Below, piece by piece: positions 36,255 to 52,927 of a stretch of 64,000 bases of DNA (within the stretch, counting starts at the first letter, position 1; each line of letters begins with the position of its first letter). The translations under genes and the position numbers were made by a program. The stretch is from NCBI GenBank assembly GCA_964606385.1, contig CAZSFZ010000001.1, forward strand, positions 136,304 to 200,303, read 5' to 3'. The notes under the pieces are model-generated. The model searched no databases. It was not told where the DNA came from and was given only the letters and a program-made list of their open reading frames with translations. This DNA comes from an uncultured bacterium. Its GTDB lineage: Bacteria; Omnitrophota; Omnitrophia; Omnitrophales; Aquincolibacteriaceae.

Positions 36255-36272
36255 AAGGTCCCTGGTCCCGGG

Positions 36273-37910: not shown

Positions 37911-37968
37911 CGCCGATAAGTTTTTTCTTTTTTTGTAACGTGTTGAAAAACTTAGGGAAAGGGCCGGA

Positions 37969-38775
37969 CTAGGCGGCCATGCCGAGCACGTGCTGCATAT
38001 GATAAAGACCTTGCCTCTTTTTCGCAAGGAATTTTGCCGCCAGGAGGGCCCCTCGGGCAAAAGCCTCCCGGGAGGAAGCCTTATGGACCAATTCGACCCG
38101 TTCCCCGTCGCCAAAGAAGGATACCGTGTGGTCCCCAATGACATCGCCCCCGCGCAGGGCAAGGACCCCGATCTTGCCTTTTTCCCGGGCTCCCGTTTCT
38201 CCCTCACGGCCATAGATCACGTCCTTTTTCATATCCCGCCCGCGCGCCTTGAGCAGGATCTCAAGAAGCTTCAGGGCCGTACCGCTCGGTGCGTCCTTCT
38301 TCATCCGGTGATGGATCTCCATGATCTCCAGATCATAGTCCTCATCCAGCACCTTGCCGGCGATCTCGGCCAGCTTGAAAAGCAGGTTCACTCCCACGCT
38401 CATATTGGGAGATTGAACGATCGGGATCTTCTTGGAAGCCGCGGCGATCTGCCTGAGCATCGCCTGGGGGATCCCCGTCGTCCCGATCACATACGCTGTA
38501 TGGGTATTAACGGCAGCTTTAAGGTTTTCCGGTAGCGCGGAATAATGGCTGAAATCGATCAGGACATCCGCGTTCCTGAGCGTGGCCGTGGGGTCCTGCG
38601 TCACTTTGACCCCCATCAGGTCGCAGCCGATCATGGGCCCAAGGTCCTGCCCAAGGGCCGCGTGCCCGCGTTGCTCCAATCCCCCAGCGATCTTGAAAGC
38701 CTTGTCCTGAGCCGCGAGCCGGAGAATGATCTTCCCCATCCTCCCGGAAGCGCCTGCCATCACGAGCTTGATCAT
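37969..38775 (-). CDS. dapB: 4-hydroxy-tetrahydrodipicolinate reductase
   Basis: At 268 aa, it has the N-terminal GASGRMG NAD(P)-binding motif and typical DapB length; its stop overlaps the dapA region. Confidence 0.85.
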   Translation of the reverse strand: MIKLVMAGASGRMGKIILRLAAQDKAFKIAGGLEQRGHAALGQDLGPMIGCDLMGVKVTQDPTATLRNADVLIDFSHYSALPENLKAAVNTHTAYVIGTTGIPQAMLRQIAAASKKIPIVQSPNMSVGVNLLFKLAEIAGKVLDEDYDLEIMEIHHRMKKDAPSGTALKLLEILLKARGRDMKKDVIYGREGETGAREKGKIGVLALRGGDVIGDHTVSFFGDGERVELVHKASSREAFARGALLAAKFLAKKRQGLYHMQHVLGMAA

Positions 38776-39659
38776 TTGAGGACCCCCAGTTTTTTGAGGA
38801 CTTCCGCGAGCTTTTTCTCATTCTCCGGCCGCATTTCGCAAAGCGGCAGGCGGAGCTCCGGCTTGATCTTCCCCATCATGCCCAGCGCTGTCTTGACGGG
38901 GATCGGGTTCGTTTCGATGAAAACCGTTTTGGAGATCGGATAAAGTTTCTTATGGATCTTGCGGGCCTCTTCCATTTTTCCGTCCAGAGCGGCCTGCACC
39001 ATGGTCTTGACCAAACGAGGGGCGATATTCGCGACGACTGAGATCACGCCGCGAGCGCCGATCGCGATCAGGGGGAAATTCAGGGAATCCTCTCCCGAAA
39101 GCACCGGCATGTCGCAAAGCTGCATGATCTGGTCGGCCTGGTCCATGCTCCCGCTCGCTTCCTTGATCGCCACGATCGTGTCGATCGCGGAAAGCCTCGC
39201 CACCGTTTCCGGCGCAATGGAAACCCCCGTGCGGCCCGGCACATTGTAGAGCACCATCGGGATATCGACGCGGCTTGCGAGATATTGATAATGACGGAAC
39301 AGGCCTTCCTGTGTCGGTTTGTTGTAATAAGGCGTCACGACGAGCACGCCGTCGGCCTTGATCTTTTTGGCATGCTGGACGAGGCCGAGCGCTTCCGTCG
39401 TGTTGTTCGAACCGCAGCCGCAGATCACCGGCGCGCGGCGGTTCACGTACTCCACGACAAAGGTCATGGTGTCGCGATGTTCCTGGTGCGACATCGTGGC
39501 GGATTCGCCCGTGGTGCCGCACGGAACGATCACGTCCGTGCCTTCTTTCAGGTGAAAATCAATAAGCCCTTTGAGCGCCTTGTGATCCACCTTGCCGTCC
39601 TTAAACGGCGTGACCAGCGCGACCATGGAACCTTCAAAAACGGATTTTTTCTTTTTCAT
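38772..39659 (-). CDS. dapA: 4-hydroxy-tetrahydrodipicolinate synthase
   Basis: At 295 aa, it has the VALVTPF...VPCGTTGES motif and a 4-nt overlap with dapB. Confidence 0.85.
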   Translation of the reverse strand: MKKKKSVFEGSMVALVTPFKDGKVDHKALKGLIDFHLKEGTDVIVPCGTTGESATMSHQEHRDTMTFVVEYVNRRAPVICGCGSNNTTEALGLVQHAKKIKADGVLVVTPYYNKPTQEGLFRHYQYLASRVDIPMVLYNVPGRTGVSIAPETVARLSAIDTIVAIKEASGSMDQADQIMQLCDMPVLSGEDSLNFPLIAIGARGVISVVANIAPRLVKTMVQAALDGKMEEARKIHKKLYPISKTVFIETNPIPVKTALGMMGKIKPELRLPLCEMRPENEKKLAEVLKKLGVLK

Positions 39660-40468
39660 TGGAAATATTCCCCTTTGTAAACGAATTGGGCTTTGCCCTC
39701 CAAAAAGACTTTGGTGATCTCATCCCCCTGCTTCTGCATATCGATCCGGAGTTTCTCGCCGCTTTGGGTCAGCACGCTCACGGGAGAACCGACCAGCCCC
39801 TTAAGCACGCTTATGACGGCCGACGCGGTCGAACCCGTCCCACACGCGAGCGTCTCGTTCTCGACACCGCGCTCATACGTCCTCACGGCGATCTCTTTCT
39901 TGCCCCTGACCTCCACAAAATTCACGTTCGTTCCGAAGGGTTGGAAACGCGCGTGGTTACGGATCGCCTTTCCCATATCGAACACGGGAACTTTCCCGAG
40001 GTCTTCCGCGAAGATCACCGTGTGCGGCACGCCGGTGTCCAGGAACGCATAACGCACTTTCTGCTTGCAGGCTTCCAGTGTGTTTTCCATTTCAAAAATA
40101 CGCGGCTTCACCAGCTGCACCTTGATCTGGTCTTTTTCTCCGACCACCGCTTCGATCAGTCCGGACCCGGATTCAAAGGTCATGCGCGATGAATATTTCA
40201 AAATGTTGTAAGCATAAAGCGCGATGCAGCGGAAACCGTTCCCGCAGGCCGCGGCTTCCGAACCGTCCGAATTGATGATCCGCATCTTGAAATTCGCCGT
40301 CTTGGAATTCTCAAAAAGGAGGACCCCATCGGCCCCGGCCCCAAGATGAGGACGGCAGATCTCGCGGGTGAACGCAAGCGCGTCCTTCACGATCCCGCGG
40401 CGGTTGTCCACCACCACAAAATCATTTCCCGAAGCGACCATCTTGTAAAAAGGAATAGAGTTTTTCAT
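39656..40468 (-). CDS. dapF: diaminopimelate epimerase
   Basis: It has SGNDFVVVD and the two catalytic Cys contexts (ACGNG; ACGTGS). The start is taken at ATG 40466-40468 (MKNSIPFYKM). Confidence 0.85.
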   Translation of the reverse strand: MKNSIPFYKMVASGNDFVVVDNRRGIVKDALAFTREICRPHLGAGADGVLLFENSKTANFKMRIINSDGSEAAACGNGFRCIALYAYNILKYSSRMTFESGSGLIEAVVGEKDQIKVQLVKPRIFEMENTLEACKQKVRYAFLDTGVPHTVIFAEDLGKVPVFDMGKAIRNHARFQPFGTNVNFVEVRGKKEIAVRTYERGVENETLACGTGSTASAVISVLKGLVGSPVSVLTQSGEKLRIDMQKQGDEITKVFLEGKAQFVYKGEYFQ

Positions 40469-40517: not shown

Positions 40518-40546
40518 TATTGTACCAAAGAACCGCTTTCCGTGGA
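40518..40546 (-). promoter_or_regulatory. putative dapF promoter (minus strand: TTCCAC-17-TACAAT); the -35 overlaps heptad AACGG motif locus 3 (40531-40556)
   Basis: The revcomp reads cgtttcccgTTCCACggaaagcggttctttggTACAATacgcc, 43 nt upstream of the dapF ATG. The motif copy ggaacgggaaacg sits at 40543-40555. Confidence 0.4.
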
Positions 40547-40598: not shown

Positions 40599-41786
40599 CT
40601 AGACTAGAATAATACGAGCAGGCTCGAAGCCGTTGAAATTAGGCACAGCGCTCGCGCAGGAATAGGCGCCGATATTTTTGGCGTAGACCACATCGCCCGG
40701 ATAGAGTTCCGGAAGCTCTTCGTTGTTGGAAAGGATATCGAAGGAATCGCAGGTCGGGCCGGCAAGCGTGCTCTTGTACTTGGCTCCGCGCCGCAGGGTC
40801 TTGAACTCGTACTTGCAGTGGTCAAAGACCATCCCGGAAAAATCCTGATAGACCCCGTCGTTCAGGTAGTAAAAATTCTGGTTGTCGCGGAACGCCCGGC
40901 CGATCACCTGCGTCACGAGGATCCCCGAAGGCCCCGCGAAAAAACGGCCCGGTTCGGCGATGAATTCCGTCTGCTTTGAGAAAAGGGCTTTCATTTGCTT
41001 GCGGATCTCGGCCGCCATGCGCTCGAAGTTGATGCCGATCTCGTTCTCGAAGTGCTGGATCGGGAACCCGCCGCCGATATCCACGATCTTAAGCGGCATG
41101 TCGTTCTCTTTCGCTTCCCGAAAAATATTCGCGGTGAGCTCGAGCGCCTGCAGGTAATTTTCGACGTTCGTCGACTGAGACCCGACATGGAAACTCACGC
41201 CCTTGGGCACAAGCCCGAGGCTCTTCGCCTTCCGGAGAAGGTAGAAAGCCTGGTCCGGCTCCGCGCCGAATTTAAGCGAGAGCTGCACCACACTCCCCCG
41301 GTTCGCGACCTTAATGCGGACGATCACATGCGCCTTGGGGAAATTCTCGGCGATCTTGTAGAGCTCGGCTTCGTTGTCGAACGTCATCAGTTTGACGCCG
41401 CGGCGGCGCGCTGTGTTGAGATCTTCTTTAGATTTGATCGTGTTCGCGAAAATGATGCGGCCCGGGGACACACCGTGTTTCAGCACCGATTTCATCTCGG
41501 CCGCGCTTGCCACGTCAAAGCTCGCGCCGAGTTCCGCGAAGGTCTTCACGATCTTCGGGTTCGGGTTGGCCTTGATGGCGTAGTACGGTGTCACTTCCGG
41601 AAAGGCCTTCGTAAAGCGGGCGTACTGCTTTTCGAGCACGCTCTTGCGGATCAGCATAAAAGGGGTTTTATGCTTTTTGAGCATCGTGCGGATAAGGTTT
41701 TCGACCCCGGAGATCTCGGCCGGTTTCGGCGGCTTATTGATCAGGATAGGCGTATTCCCGTTCAGGGGCGGTGCCTGTTTTATCAA
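40599..41786 (-). CDS. ornithine (or lysine/ornithine) decarboxylase, PLP fold-III, eukaryotic-type ODC family
   Basis: It has YAIKANPNP (the PLP lysine), GGGFP, and the active-site Cys context GPTCDSFD. The ORF-track start is a TTG 3 nt after the hss stop. Internal ATGs at M35 or M44 are alternative starts. Confidence 0.75.
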   Translation of the reverse strand: MIKQAPPLNGNTPILINKPPKPAEISGVENLIRTMLKKHKTPFMLIRKSVLEKQYARFTKAFPEVTPYYAIKANPNPKIVKTFAELGASFDVASAAEMKSVLKHGVSPGRIIFANTIKSKEDLNTARRRGVKLMTFDNEAELYKIAENFPKAHVIVRIKVANRGSVVQLSLKFGAEPDQAFYLLRKAKSLGLVPKGVSFHVGSQSTNVENYLQALELTANIFREAKENDMPLKIVDIGGGFPIQHFENEIGINFERMAAEIRKQMKALFSKQTEFIAEPGRFFAGPSGILVTQVIGRAFRDNQNFYYLNDGVYQDFSGMVFDHCKYEFKTLRRGAKYKSTLAGPTCDSFDILSNNEELPELYPGDVVYAKNIGAYSCASAVPNFNGFEPARIILV

Positions 41787-41789
41787 CGC

Positions 41790-43298
41790 TTAGACCCTTT
41801 CGTCCACAAGGAATGATTTGAACTGCCAGAGGTCTTTTTCCCGGGGGGCCTCGGACCCGAACTTCAGATATTTTTGATTGAGGTTCTTGAGCGGCGTCCA
41901 ATCCGAGGGGATCGAGACGAGCGGGACGATATAAGGCGTCGCGAACTTCAGGATGAATTCATGATCGATGTCATCCGGAAGCAGGAACCCTTCTCGGGGG
42001 TTCTGGATCATCCAGAGCGCGGCCGCGACGACCGAGACCGCGACCTGAAGCGTGGTCGCCTGCTGATGCGGAACAAGCTTGCGCGTCGTGTGGATATCGA
42101 GAAGACTGCCGCACCACCACGACTTGAAATCGTGCCCCATAAGGAGCACGCCGAGTTCATCGCGGCCGTCAATGATATCGTCAGAAAGGATGCGCTGCTT
42201 TTCCTGCATCTTGTACTGACGCATCCGGAGCTCGTGCATGGAAAGGATCGCCGCGTCCGAAGGACAATACGCGTAATGCACCGTCGGGCGATAAACGGCT
42301 TTGCCGTTCTCCCAGACCGTCAGCCGGTCCGAAAGACTGTAAGCTTCTCCATGACGGATCACCATACCGTTGATCTCGCCGCAGGGCACCCAGGAACGGA
42401 CCCAGGTGTTCATGCCAAGGGTCCCGAGACAGATCTGATTCTTAGGACCTGTTTTGTGTTCAAAACCATCTTTCGGAAGTTTCTTTTCGTGGGTCCCCCA
42501 TCCCATTTCGGCCGGAGCCACACCTTCTTCGTAAAAGCCTTCGATCGACCAGGTGTTCACGAACTCATTTACCTGTTTCGGCTTGTCCGTGATCTGGGTG
42601 TCGCGTTCGCTGACATGAATGACCTTCGTACCGGTCACTTGCGCGAGCTTCGGGAAATTCTTCTCGACGAGGAAGCGCTTAAGGTCCTTGACGCGCGGAT
42701 CGGAAGGTTTTGTTTGGATGATCTTTTTGGCGATATCGATCAAGGCCTTCTTCGTGAAATGGGAAACCAGGCCGGGATTCGCGCCGTGGTCCACGATGGC
42801 GGTGGTGCCTTTCTTGTTGCCCCACTTGTCCGTCATGAGCTTGCGGAGCTTCATATGGCGGTGATAGAGCGTGTACTGCGTCGGATCGGTCCGCTTGTCG
42901 TCACGGTACGGGTCCCATTCCTCGACTGAAGTATTCACATAGAGGACATTGTTCGCGCGGCACCAGTCGAGGATCTCCCAGCAGTCGATATTCCAGGCAA
43001 GATCGATGATCATGTCCCCGGAACCCACGTATTTCGCGAGAAGCTTCTTGTAATTCTGTTCGGTAATCTTATCGAAGACGTAGCGGACGCCTTTTTTGAG
43101 GGCGTCTTTCACGCGGGCGCGGTTGTCCACGAAATCCATGATCGTGATGTTCTTGGCCGGCATTCCGAAGTGCCGGAGCACAAGCGGCACGGTGCACTGC
43201 GACACGCCCCCGCATCCGAGGATGAGGAGTTTGCCTCCGAATTTCACTTTGGTTTTAGGAATGCTCGCCTTGACCTTCGGGTATTTAAATCCGCTCAT
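41790..43298 (-). CDS. hss: homospermidine synthase
   Basis: The translation shows extended similarity, recalled from memory, to bacterial HSS. Matching segments are LILGCGGVSQ (NAD-binding), DTQITDKPKQVNEFVNTWSIEGF, AEMGWGTHEK, AVYRPTVHYAYCPSDAAILSMHEL, DELGVLLMGHDFKSWWCGS, LQVAVSVVAAALWMIQNP, TPYIVPLV..DWTPL and the C-terminal DLWQFKSFLVDERV. The start is taken at ATG 43296-43298, which has a GGAG Shine-Dalgarno sequence. Confidence 0.75.
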   Translation of the reverse strand: MSGFKYPKVKASIPKTKVKFGGKLLILGCGGVSQCTVPLVLRHFGMPAKNITIMDFVDNRARVKDALKKGVRYVFDKITEQNYKKLLAKYVGSGDMIIDLAWNIDCWEILDWCRANNVLYVNTSVEEWDPYRDDKRTDPTQYTLYHRHMKLRKLMTDKWGNKKGTTAIVDHGANPGLVSHFTKKALIDIAKKIIQTKPSDPRVKDLKRFLVEKNFPKLAQVTGTKVIHVSERDTQITDKPKQVNEFVNTWSIEGFYEEGVAPAEMGWGTHEKKLPKDGFEHKTGPKNQICLGTLGMNTWVRSWVPCGEINGMVIRHGEAYSLSDRLTVWENGKAVYRPTVHYAYCPSDAAILSMHELRMRQYKMQEKQRILSDDIIDGRDELGVLLMGHDFKSWWCGSLLDIHTTRKLVPHQQATTLQVAVSVVAAALWMIQNPREGFLLPDDIDHEFILKFATPYIVPLVSIPSDWTPLKNLNQKYLKFGSEAPREKDLWQFKSFLVDERV

Positions 43299-43344
43299 TT
43301 TGTTTCTTTTTCTCCGTTCTCCGGTTTTGAAGTTAGGGGCCCGA

Positions 43345-43409
43345 ATATTACAACAAAAAAGAGACACCTTCAATCAATTCGAAGGATTTCACGAAGGATC
43401 GGAAGGTGT
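43345..43409 (-). terminator. rho-independent terminator immediately after lysA
   Basis: The stem is acaccttc (43364-43371) paired with gaaggtgt (43402-43409), with an inner ccttcg/cgaagg pairing. On the minus transcript it is followed by cucuuuuuuguug. Confidence 0.6.
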
Positions 43410-43410
43410 T

Positions 43411-44685
43411 TTAAACTCGTTCGCCGCGGACGAGGTCCTGGTAGGTCTCGCGTTTACGGACCACCTTAAAAGCGGAACCTTTGACCATCACTTCGCACGC
43501 CCGGGGACGGGAATTGTAATTCGAAGCCATGGTGAATCCGTAGGCGCCGGTGGTCATAATGGCCAGATGATCGCCCGCTTTCATTTCCAGGAGCTCGCGG
43601 TTCTTCGCGAAAAAATCGCCGCTTTCACAGATCGGCCCGACGACATCGTAGACCCACGCGTGCGCGTTTTCGTTTTTCGCAACCGGCCAGATATGATGAA
43701 AGGCGTTATAGAACGCGGGACGGATGAAATCATTCATGCCCGCGTCCACGATCGCGAACTTCTTCACGTCCGTTTCCTTCACATAGATCACCTTCGTCGC
43801 GAGAATGCCGCTGTTGGCCGCGATGAAACGCCCCGGCTCGAAGATGAGCTGGAACTTCCGTTTTTTAAAAAGAGGCAGGATCTTCCGCGCGAATTCATCC
43901 GCCGTTTGGGGATTTTCATCGCTGTAAATGGCGCCGAGGCCGCCGCCCAGGTTCAAGAATTTGATCCTGATACCGTCCTGCTGGAGCTCATCGATGAATT
44001 CCAGGATCTTCCTGAAAGCTTCCACGAAGGGGTCCCCGTTCTCGATCTGGGAGCCGATATGCACATGCACGCCCGTGACCTGCGCATGGCTGAAGTTCCT
44101 CGCGCTTTTGAAGATCTCGCGCGCCTTCTCAAAATCGATGCCGAACTTGGTCTCGGCCTTGCCCGTCGTGATGTATTCGTGGGTATGCGGGTCCACATTC
44201 GGATTGATCCGGAGCGACACGTTCACTTTCTTGCGCATCTTTTTGGCAATCGCGTTGATCTGTTCGAGTTCCGGCATGGATTCCACGTTAAAAAGAAGGA
44301 TCCGGGCCTTAATCGCCGCGCGGATCTCTTCCGCCGTTTTCCCGACGCCGGCGTAAACGATCTTCTTGCCCTGGCATTTCGCTTTTTTCGCCCGGAAAAG
44401 TTCCCCGCCGGAGACAATGTCCAGCCCCGCGCCTTTTTTGACGAGCGCGCGAAGGACCGCCAGGTTCGAGTTCGCCTTCACCGAATAGCAAATGAGGGGT
44501 TTCGCCGACCGGAAGGCCTTCTGGAGCTTGGCGAGATGTTCCGTGAAGGTTTTCTGGCTGTAGATATAAGCGGGCGTACCCGTTTTTTTCAGGATCTTCG
44601 AAGCGCGGACCTTATCGCAATAAAGTTCGCCCTTCTTGTAATAGAAGTCGTGCATTTTCTCTTCGTGAAAATCGGTACGGGACAT
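43411..44685 (-). CDS. lysA: diaminopimelate decarboxylase
   Basis: It has the PLP fold-III CYSVKANSN motif, a GGG motif, the CESGD active-site context and about 420 aa. Confidence 0.85.
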   Translation of the reverse strand: MSRTDFHEEKMHDFYYKKGELYCDKVRASKILKKTGTPAYIYSQKTFTEHLAKLQKAFRSAKPLICYSVKANSNLAVLRALVKKGAGLDIVSGGELFRAKKAKCQGKKIVYAGVGKTAEEIRAAIKARILLFNVESMPELEQINAIAKKMRKKVNVSLRINPNVDPHTHEYITTGKAETKFGIDFEKAREIFKSARNFSHAQVTGVHVHIGSQIENGDPFVEAFRKILEFIDELQQDGIRIKFLNLGGGLGAIYSDENPQTADEFARKILPLFKKRKFQLIFEPGRFIAANSGILATKVIYVKETDVKKFAIVDAGMNDFIRPAFYNAFHHIWPVAKNENAHAWVYDVVGPICESGDFFAKNRELLEMKAGDHLAIMTTGAYGFTMASNYNSRPRACEVMVKGSAFKVVRKRETYQDLVRGERV

Positions 44686-44715
44686 TTCAACACCTCATTC
44701 ATTTAACGTCATTGC

Positions 44716-44800
44716 GAGAAGCCTCGAAGCGGCGACGCGGCAATCTGGTTTAAATCGAGATTGCTTCGCTATCTACGCGGCTTGCAATGGACAGGAACCA
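44716..44800 (-). promoter_or_regulatory. structured intergenic element between argH and lysA (nested inverted repeats)
   Basis: There is an inner perfect hairpin gcaatct-N11-agattgc. An outer pairing cgaagc...gcttcg and cattgcgagaagc...gcttgcaatg has bulges. Confidence 0.35.
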
Positions 44801-44820
44801 TTCGACCTAAAAAACCAGCC

Positions 44821-46197
44821 TTACAACGTTTTCTTCCATGCGGCAATCGTTTGCCTGACCTGAGCGGGATGCGTGCTTCCGATCGTTTTCTTGCCTTTGA
44901 CGGACTCTTTCGCATCAAAAAGATCGTGGATGTCCGCGCCGAACTTGGGCGAGAACTTTTGCCACTCCTTGACGGACCATTCCCGAAGCCTTCTCTCGGA
45001 TTCGATCGCCTGCCGGACGGTCTGGCCCACAAGAGCATGCGCTTCGCTGAAGGGAACTTTTTTCCTCACCAGATATTCCAGGATGTCCGTCGCGAAAAGG
45101 CTGTCGTCATCAAGCGACTTTGAAAGCGCTTTTTTATTCCAGCTCGCGGAGCCCACGGCCAGCGCCAGAAGCTCCAGCGCGATCCCCGTCTTTTTCACGG
45201 CGTCGAATACCCCGGGCTTGTCCTCCTGAAGGTCCCGGTTATAAGAAAGCGGCAGGCCTTTTTGAACGGTCAGAAGGGCCTGAAGGTGACCGAAGATCAC
45301 GCCGGCCCGGCCGCGCACGAGTTCGAACACATCCGGATTTTTCTTCTGCGGCATGAGGCTCGAGCCCGTCGCGAACGCGTCATCGAGCTCCACGTACCCG
45401 AACGCCTCGGAATTCCAGAGAATGAAATCCTCCGAAAGCCTTGAAAGGTGGGTCCACAAAATGGCAAGGGCGCTCAGGATCTCCGCGAACGATCCCCGGT
45501 CGCTCACGGCCGCCATGCTGTTTTTCGCGATCCCGGAAAAACCAAGTTCTTTCATAAGGAATTTCTGGTCCAAAGGCAGGGCGGAACCCGCGAGCGCGGC
45601 CGAACCGAGCGGCAGAATATTGATCCTTTTCATAGCATCCGCGAGACGTCCGTTGTCCTCATCCAGCATTTCAACATAGGCCAGGAGGTGATGCGCGAGA
45701 AGCACCGGCTGCGCTTTCCGCAGATGCGTCATGCCCGGGAAGATGAGGCCTTCCACTTTTTCCGCGGCGGTCACGAGCGCTTTTTGGAGTTTTTTATTCC
45801 TCAACCAGATCTCAGCGACCTTCTCCCGGAGATAGATCCGGGTCGAAGTGATCACGAGATCGTTCCGGCTCCGTCCGGTATGAAGTTTTTTCGCCACCGC
45901 GCCGGCTTTTTTCTCAAGTTCCGCCTGGATCAGCGTATGGATGTCTTCATATTGGCAGGCGTAGGCCGCAAGGTCTTTGCCCCCGAAGCTCTTTTCGATG
46001 GCGGCGAGCCCTTTCAGGATGGCTTTAGCTTCCGTTCCGGTGATGATCGCGATTTTCGCGAGCATTTTCGTCCACGCACGGTTCACGCGGAGCTCCGCGT
46101 CAAAAAGCTCCTTGTCCGTCGCGAGCGAATAGCTGAAGCATTTGAGCGCCGGATGCATTTCCTTCTTGAACCTTCCACCCCAGAGTTTTTTTGCCAT
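44821..46197 (-). CDS. argH: argininosuccinate lyase
   Basis: At 458 aa, it starts MAKKLWGGRF and carries the fumarate-lyase signature GSSLMPQKKNPD. Confidence 0.9.
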   Translation of the reverse strand: MAKKLWGGRFKKEMHPALKCFSYSLATDKELFDAELRVNRAWTKMLAKIAIITGTEAKAILKGLAAIEKSFGGKDLAAYACQYEDIHTLIQAELEKKAGAVAKKLHTGRSRNDLVITSTRIYLREKVAEIWLRNKKLQKALVTAAEKVEGLIFPGMTHLRKAQPVLLAHHLLAYVEMLDEDNGRLADAMKRINILPLGSAALAGSALPLDQKFLMKELGFSGIAKNSMAAVSDRGSFAEILSALAILWTHLSRLSEDFILWNSEAFGYVELDDAFATGSSLMPQKKNPDVFELVRGRAGVIFGHLQALLTVQKGLPLSYNRDLQEDKPGVFDAVKKTGIALELLALAVGSASWNKKALSKSLDDDSLFATDILEYLVRKKVPFSEAHALVGQTVRQAIESERRLREWSVKEWQKFSPKFGADIHDLFDAKESVKGKKTIGSTHPAQVRQTIAAWKKTL

Positions 46198-46205
46198 AAA
46201 CCACC

Positions 46206-46286
46206 TTAGCGTATAGGGTTTAGGGTATAGGGCATAGGATATAGTTTCGCTTTTCTAAACCCCATCCCCTACCCACTATCCTCTAA
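46206..46286. repeat. telomere-like palindromic intercistronic repeat element, copy A (argG stop to argH Shine-Dalgarno)
   Basis: The sequence is ttagcgtatagggtttagggtatagggcatagg...ttttctaaaccccatcccctacccactatcctctaa. It is about 85% identical to copy B at 49603-49676, has the inverted-repeat core gggtttag/ctaaaccc, and has G3/C3 tracts. Confidence 0.7.
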
Positions 46287-47467
46287 TTTTTGTACATTCC
46301 CTCGTACGGAAGTCCCCAGATCTTCATGAAACCGGCCGAGGCTTTCCGGTCGAACATGTCGCCTTTCGAGTACGTTGCTAATTTTTCTTTATAAAGAGCG
46401 TATTTTGACTCGCGTCCCACACAGATCGCATGGCCCCGGTCGAGCTTGATCCGGACTTTTCCCGTCACACGCGCCTGATTGGACGCGAAGAAAGCGTCGA
46501 GCGACCGCTTGAGCGGCGAGAACCAGAGGCCGAAATACACAAGCTCCGCATATTTTTCCGTCAGGAGCCGCTTGTAATGGAGAAATTCCCGGTCCATTAC
46601 AAAGCCTTCGAGTTCTTCGTGGGCTTTTAAAAGCACATCGGCGGCCGGCGCTTCGTAAACCTCGCGGCTTTTGATCCCCACGAGTCGGTTCTCGATCATA
46701 TCAAACCGCCCGACGCCGTACTGTCCGGCGATCATATTCAGTTTTTCGATCAGGTCCACAAGCGGCATCCGGGCCCCGTTCAATTTCACCGGCACGCCTT
46801 TTTCAAAAGTAATCTCAATATAACGCGGTTTCTTCGGGGCCTTGGCCGGAGCACAGGTCATGACATACGCGGCTTCCGGCGGCTCGACCATGGGGTCCTC
46901 CAAAATCCCAGCTTCGATCGCGATCCCCCAGATATTTTTGTCGATCGAGTAAGGACTTTTCTTGGTCACATCGATCGGGATCTCGCGCTCGAGGGCGTAC
47001 TCGATCTCTTCTTCGCGCGTCTTGAATTCCCAGTCCCGGAGCGGAGCGATGATCTTCAGTTCCGGATCAAGCGTTCTGACGCCCACCTCAAGCCGCACCT
47101 GGTCATTCCCTTTCCCCGTGCAGCCGTGCGCCACATAACCAGCGCCTTCTTTTTGCGCGACTTCTACCAAGTGTTTGGCGATCAGGGGCCGTCCAAGCGC
47201 CGTCGCGAGCGGGTACTTTCCTTCATAACGCGCGTGCGCCCAAAGCGCCGGCATGATGTAATCCTTCGCGAATTCTTCCTTGAGGTCCACGATAAAGGTC
47301 TTGATCGCGCCCGCGGCCTTGGCTCGCTTGATCAAGGGCGCTTTTTCCTTCACTTCGCCGATGAACGCCGAAAAGCAGATCACGTCCAACCCGTGGTTTT
47401 CCCCGAGCCATTTCACCGCGCAAGAGGTATCAAGCCCTCCGGAATAAGCCAATACGACTTTCTTCAT
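46283..47467 (-). CDS. argG: argininosuccinate synthase
   Basis: At 394 aa, it has the AYSGGLDTS PP-loop. Confidence 0.9.
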   Translation of the reverse strand: MKKVVLAYSGGLDTSCAVKWLGENHGLDVICFSAFIGEVKEKAPLIKRAKAAGAIKTFIVDLKEEFAKDYIMPALWAHARYEGKYPLATALGRPLIAKHLVEVAQKEGAGYVAHGCTGKGNDQVRLEVGVRTLDPELKIIAPLRDWEFKTREEEIEYALEREIPIDVTKKSPYSIDKNIWGIAIEAGILEDPMVEPPEAAYVMTCAPAKAPKKPRYIEITFEKGVPVKLNGARMPLVDLIEKLNMIAGQYGVGRFDMIENRLVGIKSREVYEAPAADVLLKAHEELEGFVMDREFLHYKRLLTEKYAELVYFGLWFSPLKRSLDAFFASNQARVTGKVRIKLDRGHAICVGRESKYALYKEKLATYSKGDMFDRKASAGFMKIWGLPYEGMYKN

Positions 47468-48399
47468 TGGATCGCTCCTTGGTTAAAAAGATAAAGCAAA
47501 ACAGCTTTTTGAATATGCAGCCGGTTCTCGGCCTCGTCGAACACGACGCAGTTCTTGCTTTCCATCACATCGTTCGTGATCTCTTCGCCCCGGTGTGCCG
47601 GCAGGCAATGCATCACAAGCGCGTCTTTCTTCGCATGCGCGAGAAGCGCCTTATTGATCTGCATGCCCTTGAAATCCTTAAGCTTTTTCTTCCGCATCGA
47701 TTCTTCGCCCATGCTGACCCACACATCCGTGTAGATCGCGTCGGCATCCTTCACGGCCTTCGCGGGATCCGAAAATCCTTCGATCACGGCGCCGGTCTTT
47801 TTGGCAATCTGTTTGGCGAGCGCCAAGAGCTTGGGCTTCGGCTGGTATTTCTTGGGCGTCGCGTACCGAATCTTCGCGCCCAATTTCGCGGCTACAAGCA
47901 TCAGCGAATGCAGGACATTATTCCCATCGCCCACGAAAGCAAGCACGGGGTCCTTCTCCGCCGGGATTTTTTCATAAAGCGTCATGTAATCGGCAAGCGC
48001 CTGGCACGGATGCTCGAGATCGCTTAAACCGTTGATCACGGGTTTCTCGAAATAGTCCTGGAATTCGGTAATGGTCCAATGCGAAAAGGTCCTCATCACG
48101 ACTCCCGAAAGATACCGCGACAGCACGCGCGCGACATCGCGCACTTCTTCCCGGACGCCGAGCTTGATGTCCTCGGGCCCGAGATAGATCACGCCGCCGC
48201 CCATCGAATAAATGCCGGCCTGAAAAGACACCCAGGTCCGCGTCGAGGGCTTCTCAAAAATGAACCCGAAGATATGGCCTTCGAGCGCGTCCCGGACTTC
48301 CTGGGGACGGGCCTTGACCTTGGCCGCGAGCTCCATGATCTTGCGGATTTCTTCGGAGCTGAGATCGTTCACTGAGATCAATGATTTGAACATGCGCAA
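47464..48399 (-). CDS. argF: ornithine carbamoyltransferase
   Basis: It has STRTR, HCLP and about 310 aa. The start may be M3 (48393). Confidence 0.85.
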   Translation of the reverse strand: MRMFKSLISVNDLSSEEIRKIMELAAKVKARPQEVRDALEGHIFGFIFEKPSTRTWVSFQAGIYSMGGGVIYLGPEDIKLGVREEVRDVARVLSRYLSGVVMRTFSHWTITEFQDYFEKPVINGLSDLEHPCQALADYMTLYEKIPAEKDPVLAFVGDGNNVLHSLMLVAAKLGAKIRYATPKKYQPKPKLLALAKQIAKKTGAVIEGFSDPAKAVKDADAIYTDVWVSMGEESMRKKKLKDFKGMQINKALLAHAKKDALVMHCLPAHRGEEITNDVMESKNCVVFDEAENRLHIQKAVLLYLFNQGAIQ

Positions 48400-49598
48400 C
48401 CTTCACTTTTCTTTGAGAGTTTCATAAAAACGTTGTCGAGGATCTTCATGCCGTGTTTGATCTCTTTGGCCGAGACCGTCATCGGCGGCATGACCCTCAG
48501 GATATCTCCTTGCGTCGCGTTGATCAGAAGCCCCTGCTCGCGGGCTTCCGTCGCGTAAGGCGCGGAAGGTTCCTTGAGCTTCAGGCCCCGCATGAGCCCT
48601 ACGCCGCGCGTGCTATCGATCACGGAATACTTGGCCTTGAGCTTCTGGAATTCCTGCTCCAGCAGCTCTCCCATCCGGACCGTATTCGTAAGAAGTTTTT
48701 CCTTTTTGATCGCCTTGAAGACCGCGAGGCTCGCCGCGCACACAAGCGGGTTCCCGCCGTAGGTCGAGCCATGCATCCCGGCCACGAGCACTTCACGCGT
48801 GATCTTCCGGCTGATCAGAAAAGCCCCGATCGGCGTTCCGCCGCCCAAGGTCTTCGCGAGCGTCATGATATCGGGTTCGATCCCGTAATGCTGGTAAGCG
48901 AACATCTTGCCCGTACGCCCCATCCCGGTTTGCACTTCATCCAGAATAAGAAGCATGTCTTTTTCGTCGCAAAGTTTCCGGAGGCCTTGCATAAATTCTT
49001 GTGTCGCCACCGAAACACCGCCCTCGCCCTGGATCGGCTCGAGCATGACCGCGATGGTCTTGTCAGTCACAAGCTTTTTAACCGAATCGAGATCGTTAAA
49101 ATCCGCGTGGAGGAATTTTTCCATGAGCGGTTGAAAACCTTCGTGGAACTTGCCCTGCCCCGTCGCGCGCATGGCGGCAAGCGTCCTGCCATGAAAGGAA
49201 TTCTTCATGGTGATGATCTCGTAACGCCCCGTGTCGCTGCCGTACTTTTTCGCGAATTTGATCGCGCCTTCGTTCGCCTCGGCGCCGCTATTGCAGAAAA
49301 AAACGCGGGACGGAAATGAGGCTTCGACAAGCGTCCGGGCAAGTTCAGCCTGCTTCACGTTCAGGAAATTATTGGCTACATGAAGGATCTTGCGCGCCTG
49401 TTCTTTGACCGCGCTCACGACCCTGGGATGACAGTGACCGATCCCCGAAACAGCCCAGCCCGGGAAAAAATCGAGGTATTCTTTGCCTTCCAGGTCCCAA
49501 ACGCGCGAGCCCTTCCCTTTCACGAGGCATACAGGCACCCGCGTGTAGGTCGGCATCACATATTGATCGTAGAGTTTTTGAACGTCGTTTGTTTTCAT
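48378..49598 (-). CDS. argD: acetylornithine aminotransferase
   Basis: It is a class-III aminotransferase with DEVQTGMGRTG and a PLP-lysine context, at 406 aa. Confidence 0.85.
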   Translation of the reverse strand: MKTNDVQKLYDQYVMPTYTRVPVCLVKGKGSRVWDLEGKEYLDFFPGWAVSGIGHCHPRVVSAVKEQARKILHVANNFLNVKQAELARTLVEASFPSRVFFCNSGAEANEGAIKFAKKYGSDTGRYEIITMKNSFHGRTLAAMRATGQGKFHEGFQPLMEKFLHADFNDLDSVKKLVTDKTIAVMLEPIQGEGGVSVATQEFMQGLRKLCDEKDMLLILDEVQTGMGRTGKMFAYQHYGIEPDIMTLAKTLGGGTPIGAFLISRKITREVLVAGMHGSTYGGNPLVCAASLAVFKAIKKEKLLTNTVRMGELLEQEFQKLKAKYSVIDSTRGVGLMRGLKLKEPSAPYATEAREQGLLINATQGDILRVMPPMTVSAKEIKHGMKILDNVFMKLSKKSEGCACSNH

Positions 49599-49602
49599 AA
49601 TT

Positions 49603-49676
49603 TTAGCGTATAGGGTTTAGGGGATAGGGTATAAAAGGCTTTTCCTAAACCCTATACCCTACCCTCTATCCCCTAA
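49603..49676. repeat. telomere-like palindromic intercistronic repeat element, copy B (argB stop to argD start)
   Basis: The sequence is ttagcgtatagggtttaggggatagggtata-aaaggctttt-cctaaaccctataccctaccctctatcccctaa. There is a 13-bp perfect stem tatagggtttagg/cctaaaccctata. The minus (mRNA-sense) strand reads GGGGATAGAGGGTAGGGTATAGGG, a canonical four-tract G-quadruplex motif. Confidence 0.7.
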
Positions 49677-50527
49677 AGTGTGATTTCCGTCCCGATCCCT
49701 TGATCGGTGAAAATTTCGAGCAAAAGAGCGTGCGTGATGCGGCCGTCGATGATGTGCGCTTTCGGGACCCCGCCCCGGAGCGCGTCAATGCAGGCTTTCA
49801 CTTTGGGGATCATGCCCCCCGAAATAATGCCCTGATCGATCAGTTTCTGTGTGTCGTCCACATGAAGCGAGGGGATCAGCGTCTCGTCATTCGTGTGGTC
49901 CCGCAGGATCCCTTTCACGTTCGTAAGTACCATGAACTTGTGCGTGTTCATCGCCGCCGCGATATTCGCCGCCGCTTCATCCGCATTCACGTTATACATC
50001 TCGCCGTCCGGCCCTTTTCCGACCGGAAAGATCACCGGAATCCGGCCGAATTCCGTCAATTCTTTAAGCGGCACCGTATTCACGGAACTGACATCCCCGA
50101 CAAACCCGATATCTCCGTTTTCGGTGTTCTTCACGACGTTCAAAATCTCCGCGCCGTAGCCCGAAAGCCCGACCGCCGAACCGCCGAGCCGTTCGATATC
50201 ATGAACGATGCTCCGGTTGAGCTCCGCCAGCGTTTCATTGACGACCTCGATCGCCGCCTTGTCCGTCACGCGGAGGCCGTTAATGAACTGGCTCTGGATG
50301 CCTTTCTTCTTCATGTTCTCGGTGATGTATTTCCCGCCGCCATGGATCAGGATCGGCCGGATCCCGACATAGCTCATGAAGACAAGGTCCTGGAGCACCA
50401 TGTCCCGCACTTCCTGATAGGTCAGCGCCGCGCCGCCGTACTTGATGAGAACTTCCTTCCCCCGGAACTTCTGGATATAGGGAAGGGCCTCGATCAGAAC
50501 GTTGGCTTTTTCGATGAGTTTCTGCAT
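49673..50527 (-). CDS. argB: acetylglutamate kinase
   Basis: At 284 aa, it has VLIKYGGAA and the amino-acid kinase fold. Confidence 0.9.
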   Translation of the reverse strand: MQKLIEKANVLIEALPYIQKFRGKEVLIKYGGAALTYQEVRDMVLQDLVFMSYVGIRPILIHGGGKYITENMKKKGIQSQFINGLRVTDKAAIEVVNETLAELNRSIVHDIERLGGSAVGLSGYGAEILNVVKNTENGDIGFVGDVSSVNTVPLKELTEFGRIPVIFPVGKGPDGEMYNVNADEAAANIAAAMNTHKFMVLTNVKGILRDHTNDETLIPSLHVDDTQKLIDQGIISGGMIPKVKACIDALRGGVPKAHIIDGRITHALLLEIFTDQGIGTEITL

Positions 50528-50530
50528 TTT

Positions 50531-51751
50531 TTAAGAGTAGGCCGCGTTGATCAGCACGTATTTCGTCGTGAGATCCGAGGTAATGAACTCCGCCCGGCCG
50601 CGTCCTTTTCCAATCGTCACATCGATCGTGTATTCTTTTTTCTGAAGGATGCGCCGCGCTTTCGGAAGGTTCAGCACCCGAAGCCGTCCCTGGCTTACGA
50701 CCTGCGCGTCCCCGAACCAGATGCTCAGATTGTTCGGATTGAAATCCACGCCGCTCGCGCCGACCGCCGCCGCGATGCGGCCCCAGTTCGGATTCGAACC
50801 CGCGAGCATGGTCTTGAAAAGCATGGAGTTCGCGATCTGCCGCGCCGCGCGTTCCGCGTCCGTAGGCTTTTTCGCTCCCGACACCCGGAGCCGGCATACA
50901 TGCGTTACGCCTTCGCCGTCCACGACCATCTCGTGGGCGATATAGCGCATGACCTCTTCCAGGGTCTCCCGGAACATCCAGTAATCCTTGCCGATCTTGT
51001 GGATCGGAGGGTTCCCCGCTTCGCCGTTCGCGAGGCAAAGCACCATATCGTTCGTGCTCATGTCGTTATCGATCGCCATCTGGTTGAACGTATCATCCGC
51101 CGCGTGGCGCACCGCCCGCCGCAGGAGCGACTTCGTGATCGCGCAATCGGTCGTGATGAAACAAAGCATGGTCGCCATATTGGGGTGCACCATTCCCGCG
51201 CCTTTCGCGCAGGCCGCGATCGTCACTTTTTTGCCGCCCAATTCGACCGACAAGGCGATCTCTTTGCTGGAAAGGTCCGTCGTCAGGATCCCTTTCGCCG
51301 CCCCGTGGCCGCCATTCTCGGAAAGCCGGTTCGCAAGCCTCGGAAGCGCCCGCTTCACGCAGGTGATCGGAAAAGGAACGCCGATGATCCCCGTTTGAGC
51401 GATCAGCACTTCTTGAGGTAACACGTCGAGATATTTCGCCGTCTCCCAGGTGATCTCGTCGACCGCTTTTTTTCCGATCGGACCGTTCAGACAGTTCGCG
51501 TTCCCGCTTGTCCCGATGATCGCGTGATGCTTCGAAGCATGAATGGCCTTCATCGAATAAAGCACCGGCCAAGCTTTTGCGCGATTGGTCGTGAACGTTC
51601 CCGCCGCGACGCACGGCGTCTTGGAATAGATCAGGGAAACGTCGTATTTCTTTTTCTTCTTTTTGATCCCCGCGTGGATGCCGCCCGCGATAAAACCCTT
51701 CGGTGTCGTGACCGAACCGTTCTTTTCTTTCTTCCAAAAAGGTTTCTTCAC
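50531..51751 (-). CDS. argJ: bifunctional glutamate N-acetyltransferase/amino-acid acetyltransferase
   Basis: It has the autoproteolytic site context PNMATMLCFITTD and about 405 aa. The start is GTG (51749-51751), with an AAGGGAGAG Shine-Dalgarno sequence 8 nt upstream. Confidence 0.85.
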   Translation of the reverse strand: MKKPFWKKEKNGSVTTPKGFIAGGIHAGIKKKKKKYDVSLIYSKTPCVAAGTFTTNRAKAWPVLYSMKAIHASKHHAIIGTSGNANCLNGPIGKKAVDEITWETAKYLDVLPQEVLIAQTGIIGVPFPITCVKRALPRLANRLSENGGHGAAKGILTTDLSSKEIALSVELGGKKVTIAACAKGAGMVHPNMATMLCFITTDCAITKSLLRRAVRHAADDTFNQMAIDNDMSTNDMVLCLANGEAGNPPIHKIGKDYWMFRETLEEVMRYIAHEMVVDGEGVTHVCRLRVSGAKKPTDAERAARQIANSMLFKTMLAGSNPNWGRIAAAVGASGVDFNPNNLSIWFGDAQVVSQGRLRVLNLPKARRILQKKEYTIDVTIGKGRGRAEFITSDLTTKYVLINAAYS

Positions 51752-51803
51752 GATACTGCTCTCCCTTTAGTTTTGTGGGTTAGCAGTATCGTACCGCTAA
51801 CCC
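51751..51803 (-). promoter_or_regulatory. argC-argJ intercistronic alternative hairpins that may occlude the argJ start
   Basis: H2 pairs cgatactgct (51751-60) with agcagtatcg (51782-91) as a perfect 10 bp stem enclosing the Shine-Dalgarno sequence, and its 3' arm includes the G of the GTG start. H1 pairs gggttagc (51777-84) with gctaaccc (51796-803) as 8 bp and overlaps H2. Confidence 0.4.
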
Positions 51804-51826
51804 GAAGGTCTTGATTTGAAGCGGTA

Positions 51827-52849
51827 TTAAAGGAGTCCCGCCTCCTCGGGGAATCCAAACCGGATGTTCATGTTTTGCACGGCCTGCCCGGCCGCTCCTT
51901 TGACAAGATTGTCGATCGCCGTGAGGATCACCACGCGTTTCGTTTCCTCCTGCACGCTCACGCCGATATCGCAAAAATTCGTGTGCTGCACGTCTTTCAG
52001 GCACGGGTACTGCCCCGCCGGCTTGACCCGCACAAAAGGCGCCTTCTGGTACGCCGTTTCGAGTGTTTCCCGGATCTTGCTTTCGGTTGCCCTGGCCGTT
52101 GTCTGGGCATAAATCGTCGCGAGAATCCCCCGATTCACCGGCAAAAGATGCGGCACGAACGTGATCTTCACGGGTTTTCCCGCCGCCAGCGAAAGCGTCT
52201 GCTCGATCTCGGGCGTATGTTGGTGTTTATTCACCTTGTAAGCATTGTAGTTCTCGTCCACTTCACAGTAATGCGTCGCGGTCACAAGTTTTTTGCCCGC
52301 GCCGCTCACCCCCGAAGCCGCGTTAATGATGATCGTGGCGGGATCGATCAGTTTTTTCTTCAGAAGCGGGATCAACGCGAGCGAAGGCCCCGTCGGATAA
52401 CATCCCGGATTCGCGATCAGGTCCGCCTTTTTGATCTTTTCCCGGTTGATCTCGCAAAGCCCGTAAACCGCTTTCGAAAGATACTGGGGCGCGACATGGT
52501 TCACGCCGTACCACTTCTCATAGATCTTCCGGTCCTTCAGGCGAAAATCCGCCGAAAGATCGATCACCACCTTGCCGGCCGCGAGGAGCTGTTCCGCCGC
52601 CGTCATGGCTTCCGTATGGGGCAGGCATAAAAAAACCACATCCGCCTTTTTTTTCACCGCGTCAAAGGAATAAGGCGTGATCTCAAGGGCAATATTCTTG
52701 GCGACCGAAGGAAGGATCTCTCGAAGGGCGATGGCTTTTTCCTGCCGGGTGGTCAAGAGAGCGACCTTGGCATGAGGATGGCCCAAGAGAAGCTTTGTCA
52801 GCTCAGCTCCGGTATATCCCGTTGCACCGAGTACCGCACAATTCAGCAT
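51827..52849 (-). CDS. argC: N-acetyl-gamma-glutamyl-phosphate reductase
   Basis: It has VLGATGYTG and the catalytic GCYPT motif. The start is taken at ATG 52847-52849 (MLNCAV), downstream of the predicted transcription start site. The ORF-track start 52927 lies inside the promoter -35. Confidence 0.85.
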   Translation of the reverse strand: MLNCAVLGATGYTGAELTKLLLGHPHAKVALLTTRQEKAIALREILPSVAKNIALEITPYSFDAVKKKADVVFLCLPHTEAMTAAEQLLAAGKVVIDLSADFRLKDRKIYEKWYGVNHVAPQYLSKAVYGLCEINREKIKKADLIANPGCYPTGPSLALIPLLKKKLIDPATIIINAASGVSGAGKKLVTATHYCEVDENYNAYKVNKHQHTPEIEQTLSLAAGKPVKITFVPHLLPVNRGILATIYAQTTARATESKIRETLETAYQKAPFVRVKPAGQYPCLKDVQHTNFCDIGVSVQEETKRVVILTAIDNLVKGAAGQAVQNMNIRFGFPEEAGLL

Positions 52850-52898
52850 GGAATGCACTTTTCTCCTTTTAGTACAATTTAAGGCTAGCGAACTGGGT

Positions 52899-52927
52899 AT
52901 TATAGAAATGGCTCTATCCTTTGTCAA
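52899..52927 (-). promoter_or_regulatory. argC operon promoter (minus strand TTGACA-17-TATAAT)
   Basis: On the plus strand, attata is at 52899-52904 and tgtcaa at 52922-52927. On the minus strand this reads TTGACAaaggatagagccatttcTATAAT. It lies about 45 nt upstream of the argC ATG, which has an AAAGGAGAAAAG Shine-Dalgarno sequence. Confidence 0.65.

Follow-up and report, generated by a model that had tools for sequence, protein, structure and literature searches.

Within the 64-kb stretch of DNA that we analysed (the window), a homospermidine synthase gene (hss) and an ornithine decarboxylase-like gene (odc) lie between lysA and dapF, in a minus-strand array that reads argCJBDFGH, lysA, hss, odc, dapF, dapA, dapB (Table 1). 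Open reading frames and profile matches confirm the order of the six genes from lysA to dapB, all on the minus strand, that the original prediction had proposed, and they carry the array further upstream than was stated there, to argC-argJ-argB-argD-argF-argG-argH, an order that is also seen in relatives; ArgJ and ArgD supply ornithine, the presumed substrate of the decarboxylase. DapF, DapA and DapB each exceed their equivalog cutoff, the DapF N-terminus (MKNSIPFYKM) is kept among relatives, and the lysA ATG is preceded by a Shine-Dalgarno-like GAGGTG. The spacers measure 112 nt between lysA and hss, 3 nt between hss and odc, and 130 nt between odc and dapF. Long ORFs (273-536 aa) antisense to hss, lysA and odc had no match in a Pfam scan, and Rfam at its gathering threshold returned no riboswitch or other RNA family in the entire 64-kb window; thus, no lysine riboswitch was found within the spacers.

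Table 1. Genes and candidate regulatory sites of the arg-lysA-hss-odc-dapFAB array (window positions)
Feature	Position	Strand	Description	Basis
argC-argJ-argB-argD-argF-argG-argH	44821..52927	-	arginine pathway	Pfam/NCBIfam: ArgJ, Semialdhyde_dh; argH TIGR00838, 514 bits
lysA	43411..44685	-	diaminopimelate decarboxylase	TIGR01048, 525 bits (cutoff 298)
Terminator-like hairpin	43354..43409	-	ACACCUUC...GAAGGUGU, then a CUCUUUUUUG run; starts 2 nt past the lysA stop	sequence, fold, inner-stem scan match
Promoter-like site (hss)	43345..43373	-	TTGAAG, 17 nt, (TG)TAATAT; ~47 nt upstream of hss ATG	
hss	41790..43298	-	NAD-dependent bacterial-type homospermidine synthase, 502 aa	PDB phmmer, catalytic residues, Pfam
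hss-odc junction	41787..41801	-	SD-like GAAAGGG within hss 3' end, TAA stop, 3-nt spacer, odc TTG	
odc	40599..41786	-	PLP-dependent alanine-racemase-fold ornithine (or lysine/ornithine) decarboxylase, 395 aa	Pfam, PDB, motifs
Extended -10 promoter-like motif (dapF)	40519..40527	-	TGGTACAAT; 51 nt upstream of dapF ATG	
dapF, dapA, dapB	37969..40468	-	dapF 39656-40468 (ATG start), dapA 38772-39659, dapB 37969-38775	TIGR00652, TIGR00674, TIGR00036

The hss product contains the Pfam domains Sacchrp_dh_NADP and Sacchrp_dh_C, with an NAD-binding match to PF03435 at 2.2e-25. We place its start at the ATG at 43298 rather than at 43301, which corrects the previously given length of 503 aa to 502 aa; the nearest homologs are likewise 502 aa long. 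A phmmer search of the PDB supports the earlier assignment of this protein to the homospermidine synthases (HSS) and not to the carboxynorspermidine dehydrogenases (CANSDH) or saccharopine dehydrogenases: the Legionella, Blastochloris and Pseudomonas enzymes were matched at E 1e-93 to 1e-102, with residues 18-499 scoring 315-346 bits against 2PH5, 4PLP and 6Y87, the next chain was a saccharopine dehydrogenase at 15.6 bits (E 0.04), and no CASDH chain was among the matches at E<=10. Identity to BvHSS is 40%, and the eight BvHSS residues with a proposed role in catalysis and in binding the substrate (Krossa et al. 2016), N162, E210, W229, E237, H296, E298, Y323 and D361, are all identical in the 502-aa protein, as N174, E231, W250, E258, H316, E318, Y342 and D380. 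These features suggest an NAD-dependent enzyme that would make sym-homospermidine from two putrescines. The protein is homologous over its full length to the bacterial HSS of Blastochloris viridis, Legionella pneumophila and Pseudomonas aeruginosa (4PLP, 2PH5 and 6Y87) and shares both Pfam domains with them, but it is ~25 aa longer, and several residues of the tunnel entry and the 'track-and-trace' loop differ from BvHSS (entry-tunnel changes V93W, D94N, V115S, Y123R, S236E, Q240A, T295R and N297G). It belongs to a clade of ~72-90% identity that spans Omnitrophota, Margulisiibacteriota, Saganbacteria and Dependentiae and has no member among the solved HSS structures or the HSS of the literature cited here.

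The odc product combines Orn_Arg_deC_N with Orn_DAP_Arg_deC and scores under the LysA cutoff. Its top PDB matches (E 1e-64 to 1e-76) are the lysine/ornithine decarboxylases (L/ODCs) 5gjm and 2plj, the chlorovirus arginine decarboxylase (cvADC) and human ODC. The PLP lysine and the Gly-rich phosphate loop are present, as are the active-site Cys-Asp and the FDH Asp, in the motifs YAIKAN (K72), DIGGGFP (236), AEPGRFF (277), FDHCKY (D322) and GPTCD (C346-D347), together with GAY and FNGF; the Asp of FDH occupies the ODC D332 position. The residue at that position reportedly plays a role in substrate specificity. TIGR01047 (nspC) gave no match to this protein at E<=1e-3, whereas it does match LysA. 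An ODC-type enzyme of the alanine-racemase (AR) fold, rather than a carboxynorspermidine decarboxylase (CANSDC), had been anticipated, and the domains, the PDB matches, the FDHCKY Asp and the lack of an nspC match all agree with it. The protein is best described as an AR-fold ODC or L/ODC with a putative preference for L-ornithine. Plasmid-borne ODC homologs reach at most 37% identity to it and are uninformative.

The two genes form a recurrent pair. As had been noted before, the odc TTG (41786-41784) lies 3 nt past the hss stop (TAA, 41792-41790); in relatives the homologous position, 6 nt past the stop, is occupied by an ATG, and the odc N-terminus is conserved (LNGNTP, for instance, is shared with locus L003). 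This position of the start makes the proposed tight hss-odc coupling plausible. An adjacent and co-directional odc follows hss at more than 40 of the 86 HSS loci, in at least seven phylum-level groups (Omnitrophota, Margulisiibacteriota, Nitrospinota, Verrucomicrobiota/Opitutae, Elusimicrobia, Gemmatimonas and Methylacidiphilum). That hss adjoins an AR-fold ODC gene in diverse bacteria is already published, and the Brucella abortus ODC acts on ornithine only (Li et al. 2026 JBC, PMC13625781); the Brucella abortus ODC/HSS pathway has the same pairing with a human-type AR-fold ODC and the same logic of putrescine from ornithine followed by HSS. What sets the Omnitrophota pair apart from those published hss and odc clusters is that it was inserted into an arg-lys-dap array, with lysA on one side and dapF on the other, and that its promoter-like sites are lineage-specific.

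The comparison of related loci indicates how the pair came to lie there. Among 61 informative DapF loci, lysA abuts dapF in 46, with a gap of 2-165 nt, and odc lies upstream of dapF in seven, all of them among the closer relatives; the closest relatives have hss-odc-dapFAB without lysA upstream, and lysA is missing upstream at loci L001, L002 and L007. Since lysA abuts dapF in so many related loci, hss-odc was inserted into an arg-lysA-dapFAB array that is ancestral, and is not an original member of the lysine/DAP genes. Homologous genes annotated as HSS occur in phages, and delivery by a phage was considered and rejected, the proteins of Ralstonia phage phiRSL1 and Achromobacter phage Motura being merely 41% and 31% identical.

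Candidate promoters flank the coding sequences of the inserted pair. The motif before hss has a single match in the 64-kb window, both strands included, and all Omnitrophota relatives whose HSS is at least 80% identical carry it in the same position, as do L014 and L015, although the sequence flanking it is not alignable. Before dapF, TGNTA[CG]AAT likewise occurs only once on both strands of the window, and TGnTAnAAT is found upstream of dapF at 12 of 12 insert-bearing loci (11 of 11 relatives) versus 1 of 45 loci in which lysA abuts dapF. A generic promoter/terminator scan gave counts that were not above those of shuffled sequence and flagged neither the hss nor the dapF site (they score 8 of 12 or have no -35 element); the case for these promoter-like sites therefore rests on their conservation, from which promoter activity at both may be inferred. 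The hairpin 3' of lysA has an energy no better than that of shuffled sequence (z -0.95), and its function as a terminator is tentative; on the 3' side of odc no convincing terminator was seen. With a lysA hairpin no more stable than shuffled sequence and no convincing odc terminator, read-through from lysA and into dapF is possible. The RNA folds of both spacers were not more stable than their shuffles, and we therefore claim no regulatory RNA.

Our data favour, with a probability of roughly 0.8, a model whereby a self-promoted two-gene homospermidine module was inserted into the arg-lysA-dapFAB array and dapFAB has a promoter of its own. In this model, an argFGH-lysA-dapFAB array is ancestral, and the module entered it at the lysA-dapF junction within a single Omnitrophota lineage; a sigma-70-like promoter of its own would drive hss and odc, which would be read as one unit, with the odc TTG behind the SD-like GAAAGGG; and dapFAB in the insert-bearing lineage would be served by the extended -10 promoter. 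The ODC is predicted to decarboxylate L-ornithine, the product of the enzymes encoded by the adjacent argCJBD genes, to putrescine, and the NAD-dependent HSS would join two putrescines into sym-homospermidine with release of ammonia. Whereas the gene order, the enzyme families with their catalytic residues, the recurrence of hss-odc, the insertion and the conservation of the promoter-like motifs are established here, the substrates, the products, the activity of promoters and terminator, and the translational coupling are what these results lead us to infer.

The original prediction saw the pair as embedded in a DAP/lysine operon, with polyamine synthesis co-regulated with that of lysine and peptidoglycan precursors. 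The physical part of this claim holds, as the pair does lie inside the lysA/dap array, and lysA-hss-odc-dapFAB might be one operon under shared control, given that all genes are co-directional, that the spacers are as short as 112, 3 and 130 nt, and that, with no strong terminator after odc, hss-odc transcripts may enter dapFAB. We regard such a single operon as unlikely, however, and co-regulation as not supported: a terminator-like hairpin with its T-run follows lysA, conserved promoter-like sites precede both hss and dapF, the nearest relatives do not keep lysA linked to the pair, and the pair was inserted into what had been a tight lysA-dapF junction. The further claim of the original prediction, that sym-homospermidine is the major polyamine, goes beyond what 64 kb of sequence can support.

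A further question is which substrate the decarboxylase uses. If it were mainly or equally a lysine decarboxylase, the neighbourhood of lysA would be functional, with the product of LysA converted to cadaverine, and the cell would make cadaverine as well as mixed triamines, N-(4-aminobutyl)cadaverine being one example. Its best-scoring solved relatives (E 1e-72 to 1e-76) are indeed the bifunctional L/ODCs of Selenomonas ruminantium (5GJM) and Vibrio vulnificus (2PLJ), which have the same fold and catalytic motifs but no linkage to hss, and lysA is directly upstream of the pair; in addition, BvHSS accepts longer diamines at low rates (PMC4725965). We nevertheless consider this improbable. In many phyla, hss is followed by an odc of this subfamily without lysA nearby; in Opitutae the gene is found near argF/argG, and in the closest relatives there is no lysA upstream. 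HSS requires putrescine, for which no other source was seen. Residues 66-68 of the odc product are VTP, as in eukaryotic ODC, whereas the Selenomonas ruminantium LDC has AGV there, although the Vibrio vulnificus L/ODC also carries VT; these positions reportedly matter for specificity. An extension of the same idea, which we hold to be quite improbable, is that the position of the insert was selected and that a dual L/ODC is fed by ornithine (argCJBD) and lysine (lysA), so that HSS would turn putrescine and cadaverine into homospermidine and aminobutylcadaverine. In Selenomonas, cadaverine is linked to peptidoglycan; if the dual L/ODC were real, its products might similarly serve the cell envelope, and polyamine supply in Omnitrophota would be tied to the genes for DAP and peptidoglycan precursors.

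It is very improbable that the decarboxylase has been neofunctionalised, like its counterpart in Rhodophila globiformis, to decarboxylate arginine, with putrescine formed through agmatine and an agmatinase encoded elsewhere. Among the AR-fold ODC homologs linked to hss, some do act strictly as ADCs (Li et al. 2026, PMC13625781), and the chlorovirus ADC ranks fourth among the PDB matches. The odc(ADC)-speB-hss clusters of Rhodophila globiformis and Magnetospirillum gryphiswaldense likewise combine HSS with an ODC-fold decarboxylase. However, in the published cases speB adjoins the decarboxylase gene, whereas the Pfam scan of window ORFs turned up no gene for agmatinase (speB), AIH, SpeE or SpeD, and no speB lies within 10 kb of the pair at four related loci (L001-L004). 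The chlorovirus ADC has Glu at the ODC Asp332 position, Asp stands there in the odc product and in every hss-linked homolog (FDHC[KH]Y), and the genes adjacent to the pair make ornithine. Finally, a CANSDH/CANSDC pair making spermidine or norspermidine, a pathway in which the same saccharopine-dehydrogenase domains and decarboxylase fold occur, is refuted by sequence, as HSS chains alone were matched in the PDB below E 0.04, the HSS catalytic residues are kept, and TIGR01047 matches LysA but not the odc product.

The annotation that emerges, a two-gene homospermidine module, is correct but ordinary: Li et al. 2026 (PMC13625781) have described the hss-odc module itself, and its genomic context is the new part. 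It assigns a function with confidence to two genes whose public records often say no more than "saccharopine dehydrogenase domain protein" or "type III PLP-dependent enzyme", and it predicts that the insert-bearing Omnitrophota lineage would be able to convert ornithine to homospermidine. For other Omnitrophota, the reported route is one to spermidine, by way of a SpeD-SpeDC fusion and SpeE (PMC10407285). The present understanding of polyamine biosynthesis is not challenged. The one mildly instructive point is evolutionary: the locus shows cleanly how, in nature, a biosynthetic module was placed in an operon junction that had been tight, and how promoter-like sites appeared on either side of the insert.

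The hss and odc genes lie within an array of arginine, lysine and diaminopimelate genes, in a part of the window where the minus strand carries all real genes. The order lysA-hss-odc-dapF-dapA-dapB is as the original prediction stated, and the odc TTG (41786-41784) indeed begins 3 nt past the hss TAA (41792-41790); of that description only the length of the hss product needed correction, from 503 to 502 aa, counted from the ATG at 43298. Long antisense ORFs over these genes gave no Pfam match, and Rfam returned nothing anywhere in the 64-kb window. By its closest homologs the window belongs to Candidatus Omnitrophota. The asd gene (aspartate-semialdehyde dehydrogenase, the step feeding DapA) is located apart from the array at 58657-59661 (-), beside leuB and glgA. 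Downstream of dapB, an ORF listed at 646 aa (36273-38213, -) overlaps dapB, has no Pfam match and includes an internal start of signal-peptide-like character; in relatives the called counterparts measure 521-568 aa. The 1565-aa protein after it has a faint SdrD_B match only, and both (within 31557-38213, -) keep their positions in relatives. A single 5277-aa ORF at 661-16494 (-) resembles a giant adhesin-like protein of the cell surface; it contains GLUG motifs, an M26 peptidase N-terminal region and 19 YDG domains.

Genes of the array, in window positions
Gene	Position	Strand	Remark
argC	51827-52927	-	arg-lys-dap array
argJ	50531-51751	-	arg-lys-dap array
argB	49673-50527	-	arg-lys-dap array
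argD	48378-49598	-	arg-lys-dap array
argF	47464-48399	-	arg-lys-dap array
argG	46283-47467	-	arg-lys-dap array
argH	44821-46197	-	above curated NCBIfam equivalog cutoff
lysA	43411-44685	-	above curated NCBIfam equivalog cutoff
hss	41790-43298	-	saccharopine-dehydrogenase-fold protein
odc	40599-41786	-	Orn/DAP/Arg-decarboxylase-fold protein
dapF	39656-40468	-	above curated NCBIfam equivalog cutoff
dapA	38772-39659	-	above curated NCBIfam equivalog cutoff
dapB	37969-38775	-	above curated NCBIfam equivalog cutoff

Judged from its sequence, the hss product is a homospermidine synthase (HSS), and it did not cluster with carboxynorspermidine dehydrogenase or saccharopine dehydrogenase. Among PDB chains searched with phmmer, the significant matches were bacterial HSS only, over residues 18-499 (Legionella 2PH5, E 2e-102; Blastochloris viridis 4PLP, E 6e-96; Pseudomonas aeruginosa 6Y87, E 6e-93); when matches up to E 10 were admitted, a saccharopine dehydrogenase came next (15.6 bits, E 0.04), and no carboxyspermidine dehydrogenase was among the matches. 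Substrate binding and catalysis in the B. viridis enzyme (BvHSS) involve Asn162, Glu210, Trp229, Glu237, His296, Glu298, Tyr323 and Asp361 (Krossa et al. 2016, PMC4725965), and all eight are identical in the window HSS (N174, E231, W250, E258, H316, E318, Y342 and D380; HMMER alignment, numbered from the true Met), at an overall identity of 40%. Substitutions relative to BvHSS are found at the tunnel entrance (V93W, D94N, V115S, Y123R, S236E, Q240A, T295R and N297G), and the Legionella HSS likewise departs from BvHSS at some of these positions.

The odc product is predicted to be an ODC-type decarboxylase. Its best solved relative is the lysine/ornithine decarboxylase of Selenomonas ruminantium (1e-75), followed by that of Vibrio vulnificus (2e-72), chlorovirus arginine decarboxylase (ADC; 2e-67) and human ODC (2e-64), the DAP decarboxylases in PDB reaching only about 1e-36; it also scores under the cutoff of the LysA model. 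The alternative of a carboxynorspermidine decarboxylase fails, as the nspC model gave no match to this protein, whereas LysA does match it. On the enzymes and the pathway the original prediction was right; neither of the groupings that it had named as counting against it was found. The protein has the PLP-lysine motif YAIKAN together with GGGFP, EPGR, GPTCD, GAY and FNGF. Its specificity helix aligns as FDHCKY with FEK of the chlorovirus ADC; we take the Asp of FDHCKY to be ODC Asp332, with Glu at that position in the viral enzyme. FDHC[KH]Y is kept in all hss-linked decarboxylases extracted, from Omnitrophota, Margulisiibacteriota, Nitrospinota, Opitutae, Elusimicrobia, Gemmatimonas and Methylacidiphilum. 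The sequence is equally compatible with a dual Lys/Orn enzyme; we take ornithine as the probable main substrate because HSS needs putrescine, because the adjoining arg genes make ornithine, and because neither agmatinase nor agmatine iminohydrolase turned up among those ORFs of the window that were searched with Pfam, or within 10 kb in close relatives. In 40599-49598 the array encodes three enzymes that depend on PLP, namely ArgD, LysA and ODC. A passage of Li et al. 2023, relaying another report, describes PLP biosynthesis as missing or incomplete across Omnitrophota, and the PLP enzymes of the array therefore imply reliance on imported vitamin B6.

The hss-odc pair is a known module, here as an uncharacterised member in a new genomic setting. 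An ODC gene of the alanine-racemase fold adjoins hss in diverse bacteria, the Brucella abortus enzyme acts on ornithine only, and an ODC homolog has turned into an ADC in clusters including speB (Li et al. 2026, PMC13625781). The arrangement in which odc directly follows hss, in the same orientation, was common in at least seven phylum-level groups among 86 HSS loci taken from assemblies and species-representative genomes. In Opitutae/Verrucomicrobiota, argF and argG lie 2-6 kb downstream of the pair (loci L044, L047, L054, L062, L077, L082, L084 and L085), which links it independently to ornithine metabolism. Some Omnitrophota and Elusimicrobia loci (L019-L021, L023 and L069) have, close to hss-odc and usually on the opposite strand, a second hss paralog that is divergent, with 51-53% identity to the query. 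Candidate division TM6/Dependentiae GW2011_GWF2_28_16 (L005/L006) has an HSS 80% identical to that of the window, with neither an odc neighbour nor the promoter motif conserved in Omnitrophota, which suggests that hss alone moved recently between these phyla.

Metagenome contigs were searched with an alignment of DapF, and the gene upstream of dapF was classified at the 61 loci with enough upstream sequence. In 46 of them lysA directly abuts dapF at a gap of 2-165 nt, for the most part 11-40 nt, and argF-argG-argH usually come before lysA; odc lies upstream of dapF in seven, all from closer relatives (DapF identity 59% or more); and five have none of these genes upstream. This distribution makes argFGH-lysA-dapFAB the ancestral order and hss-odc an insertion at the lysA/dapF junction. 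The junction holds other material in the remaining 3/61, including one with leuC-leuD (L103, leuD and leuC at 4771-6824 on the opposite strand), and so accepted other cargo too. Nor has hss-odc stayed linked to lysA throughout: at the three closest loci (87-90% HSS identity), the genes upstream of hss-odc-dapFAB are unrelated ones (restriction-modification, Fic, toxin-antitoxin), and no hss-odc was found within 4 kb upstream of one dapF locus at 82% identity.

Both spacers around the pair contain promoter-like sites. A hairpin begins 2 nt past the lysA stop and is followed by a CUCUUUUUUG run; overlapping its 3' side, upstream of hss, is TTGAAG, 17 nt, (TG)TAATAT, a pattern matched nowhere else on either strand of the 64 kb. 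In every Omnitrophota relative whose HSS is at least 80% identical, and in L014 and L015, this motif is equally far from hss; the rest of the spacer is unalignable, and the upstream gene is lysA or another. The motif was absent in the other phyla. Upstream of dapF, TGGTACAAT at 40527-40519 (-) is a textbook extended -10, unique in the window, and in the 200 nt before dapF 11/11 insert-bearing relatives have TGnTAnAAT, versus 1/45 loci with lysA abutting dapF. A generic promoter/terminator scan missed both sites, and hairpin energies in both spacers are unremarkable. From the promoter-like sites and the hairpin, three transcription units are likely, namely arg...lysA, hss-odc and dapFAB. Transcripts may read through from one unit into the next, as no strong terminator was found after odc. 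Within the pair, relatives have an ATG 6 nt past the hss stop, where the window has TTG, and the encoded N-terminus is conserved, making the TTG start and close hss-odc coupling credible. In the nearest relative (HSS 90% identical), a palindromic element of about 75 nt opens a 160-nt hss-odc gap, and inverted MITE-like copies flank odc (L001/L002, 11567-11641 and 13004-13069); the element was not found in the window.

The proposal of homospermidine as the major polyamine goes beyond the evidence; 64 kb leaves room for other polyamine routes, and other Omnitrophota make spermidine via a SpeD-SpeDC fusion and SpeE (PMC10407285). Co-regulation with the lysine genes in one operon likewise reaches too far: the data point to hss-odc as an inserted, self-promoted module. 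The module is of low specialist interest here, and its insertion with new promoters is neat as an evolutionary observation, though a minor one.
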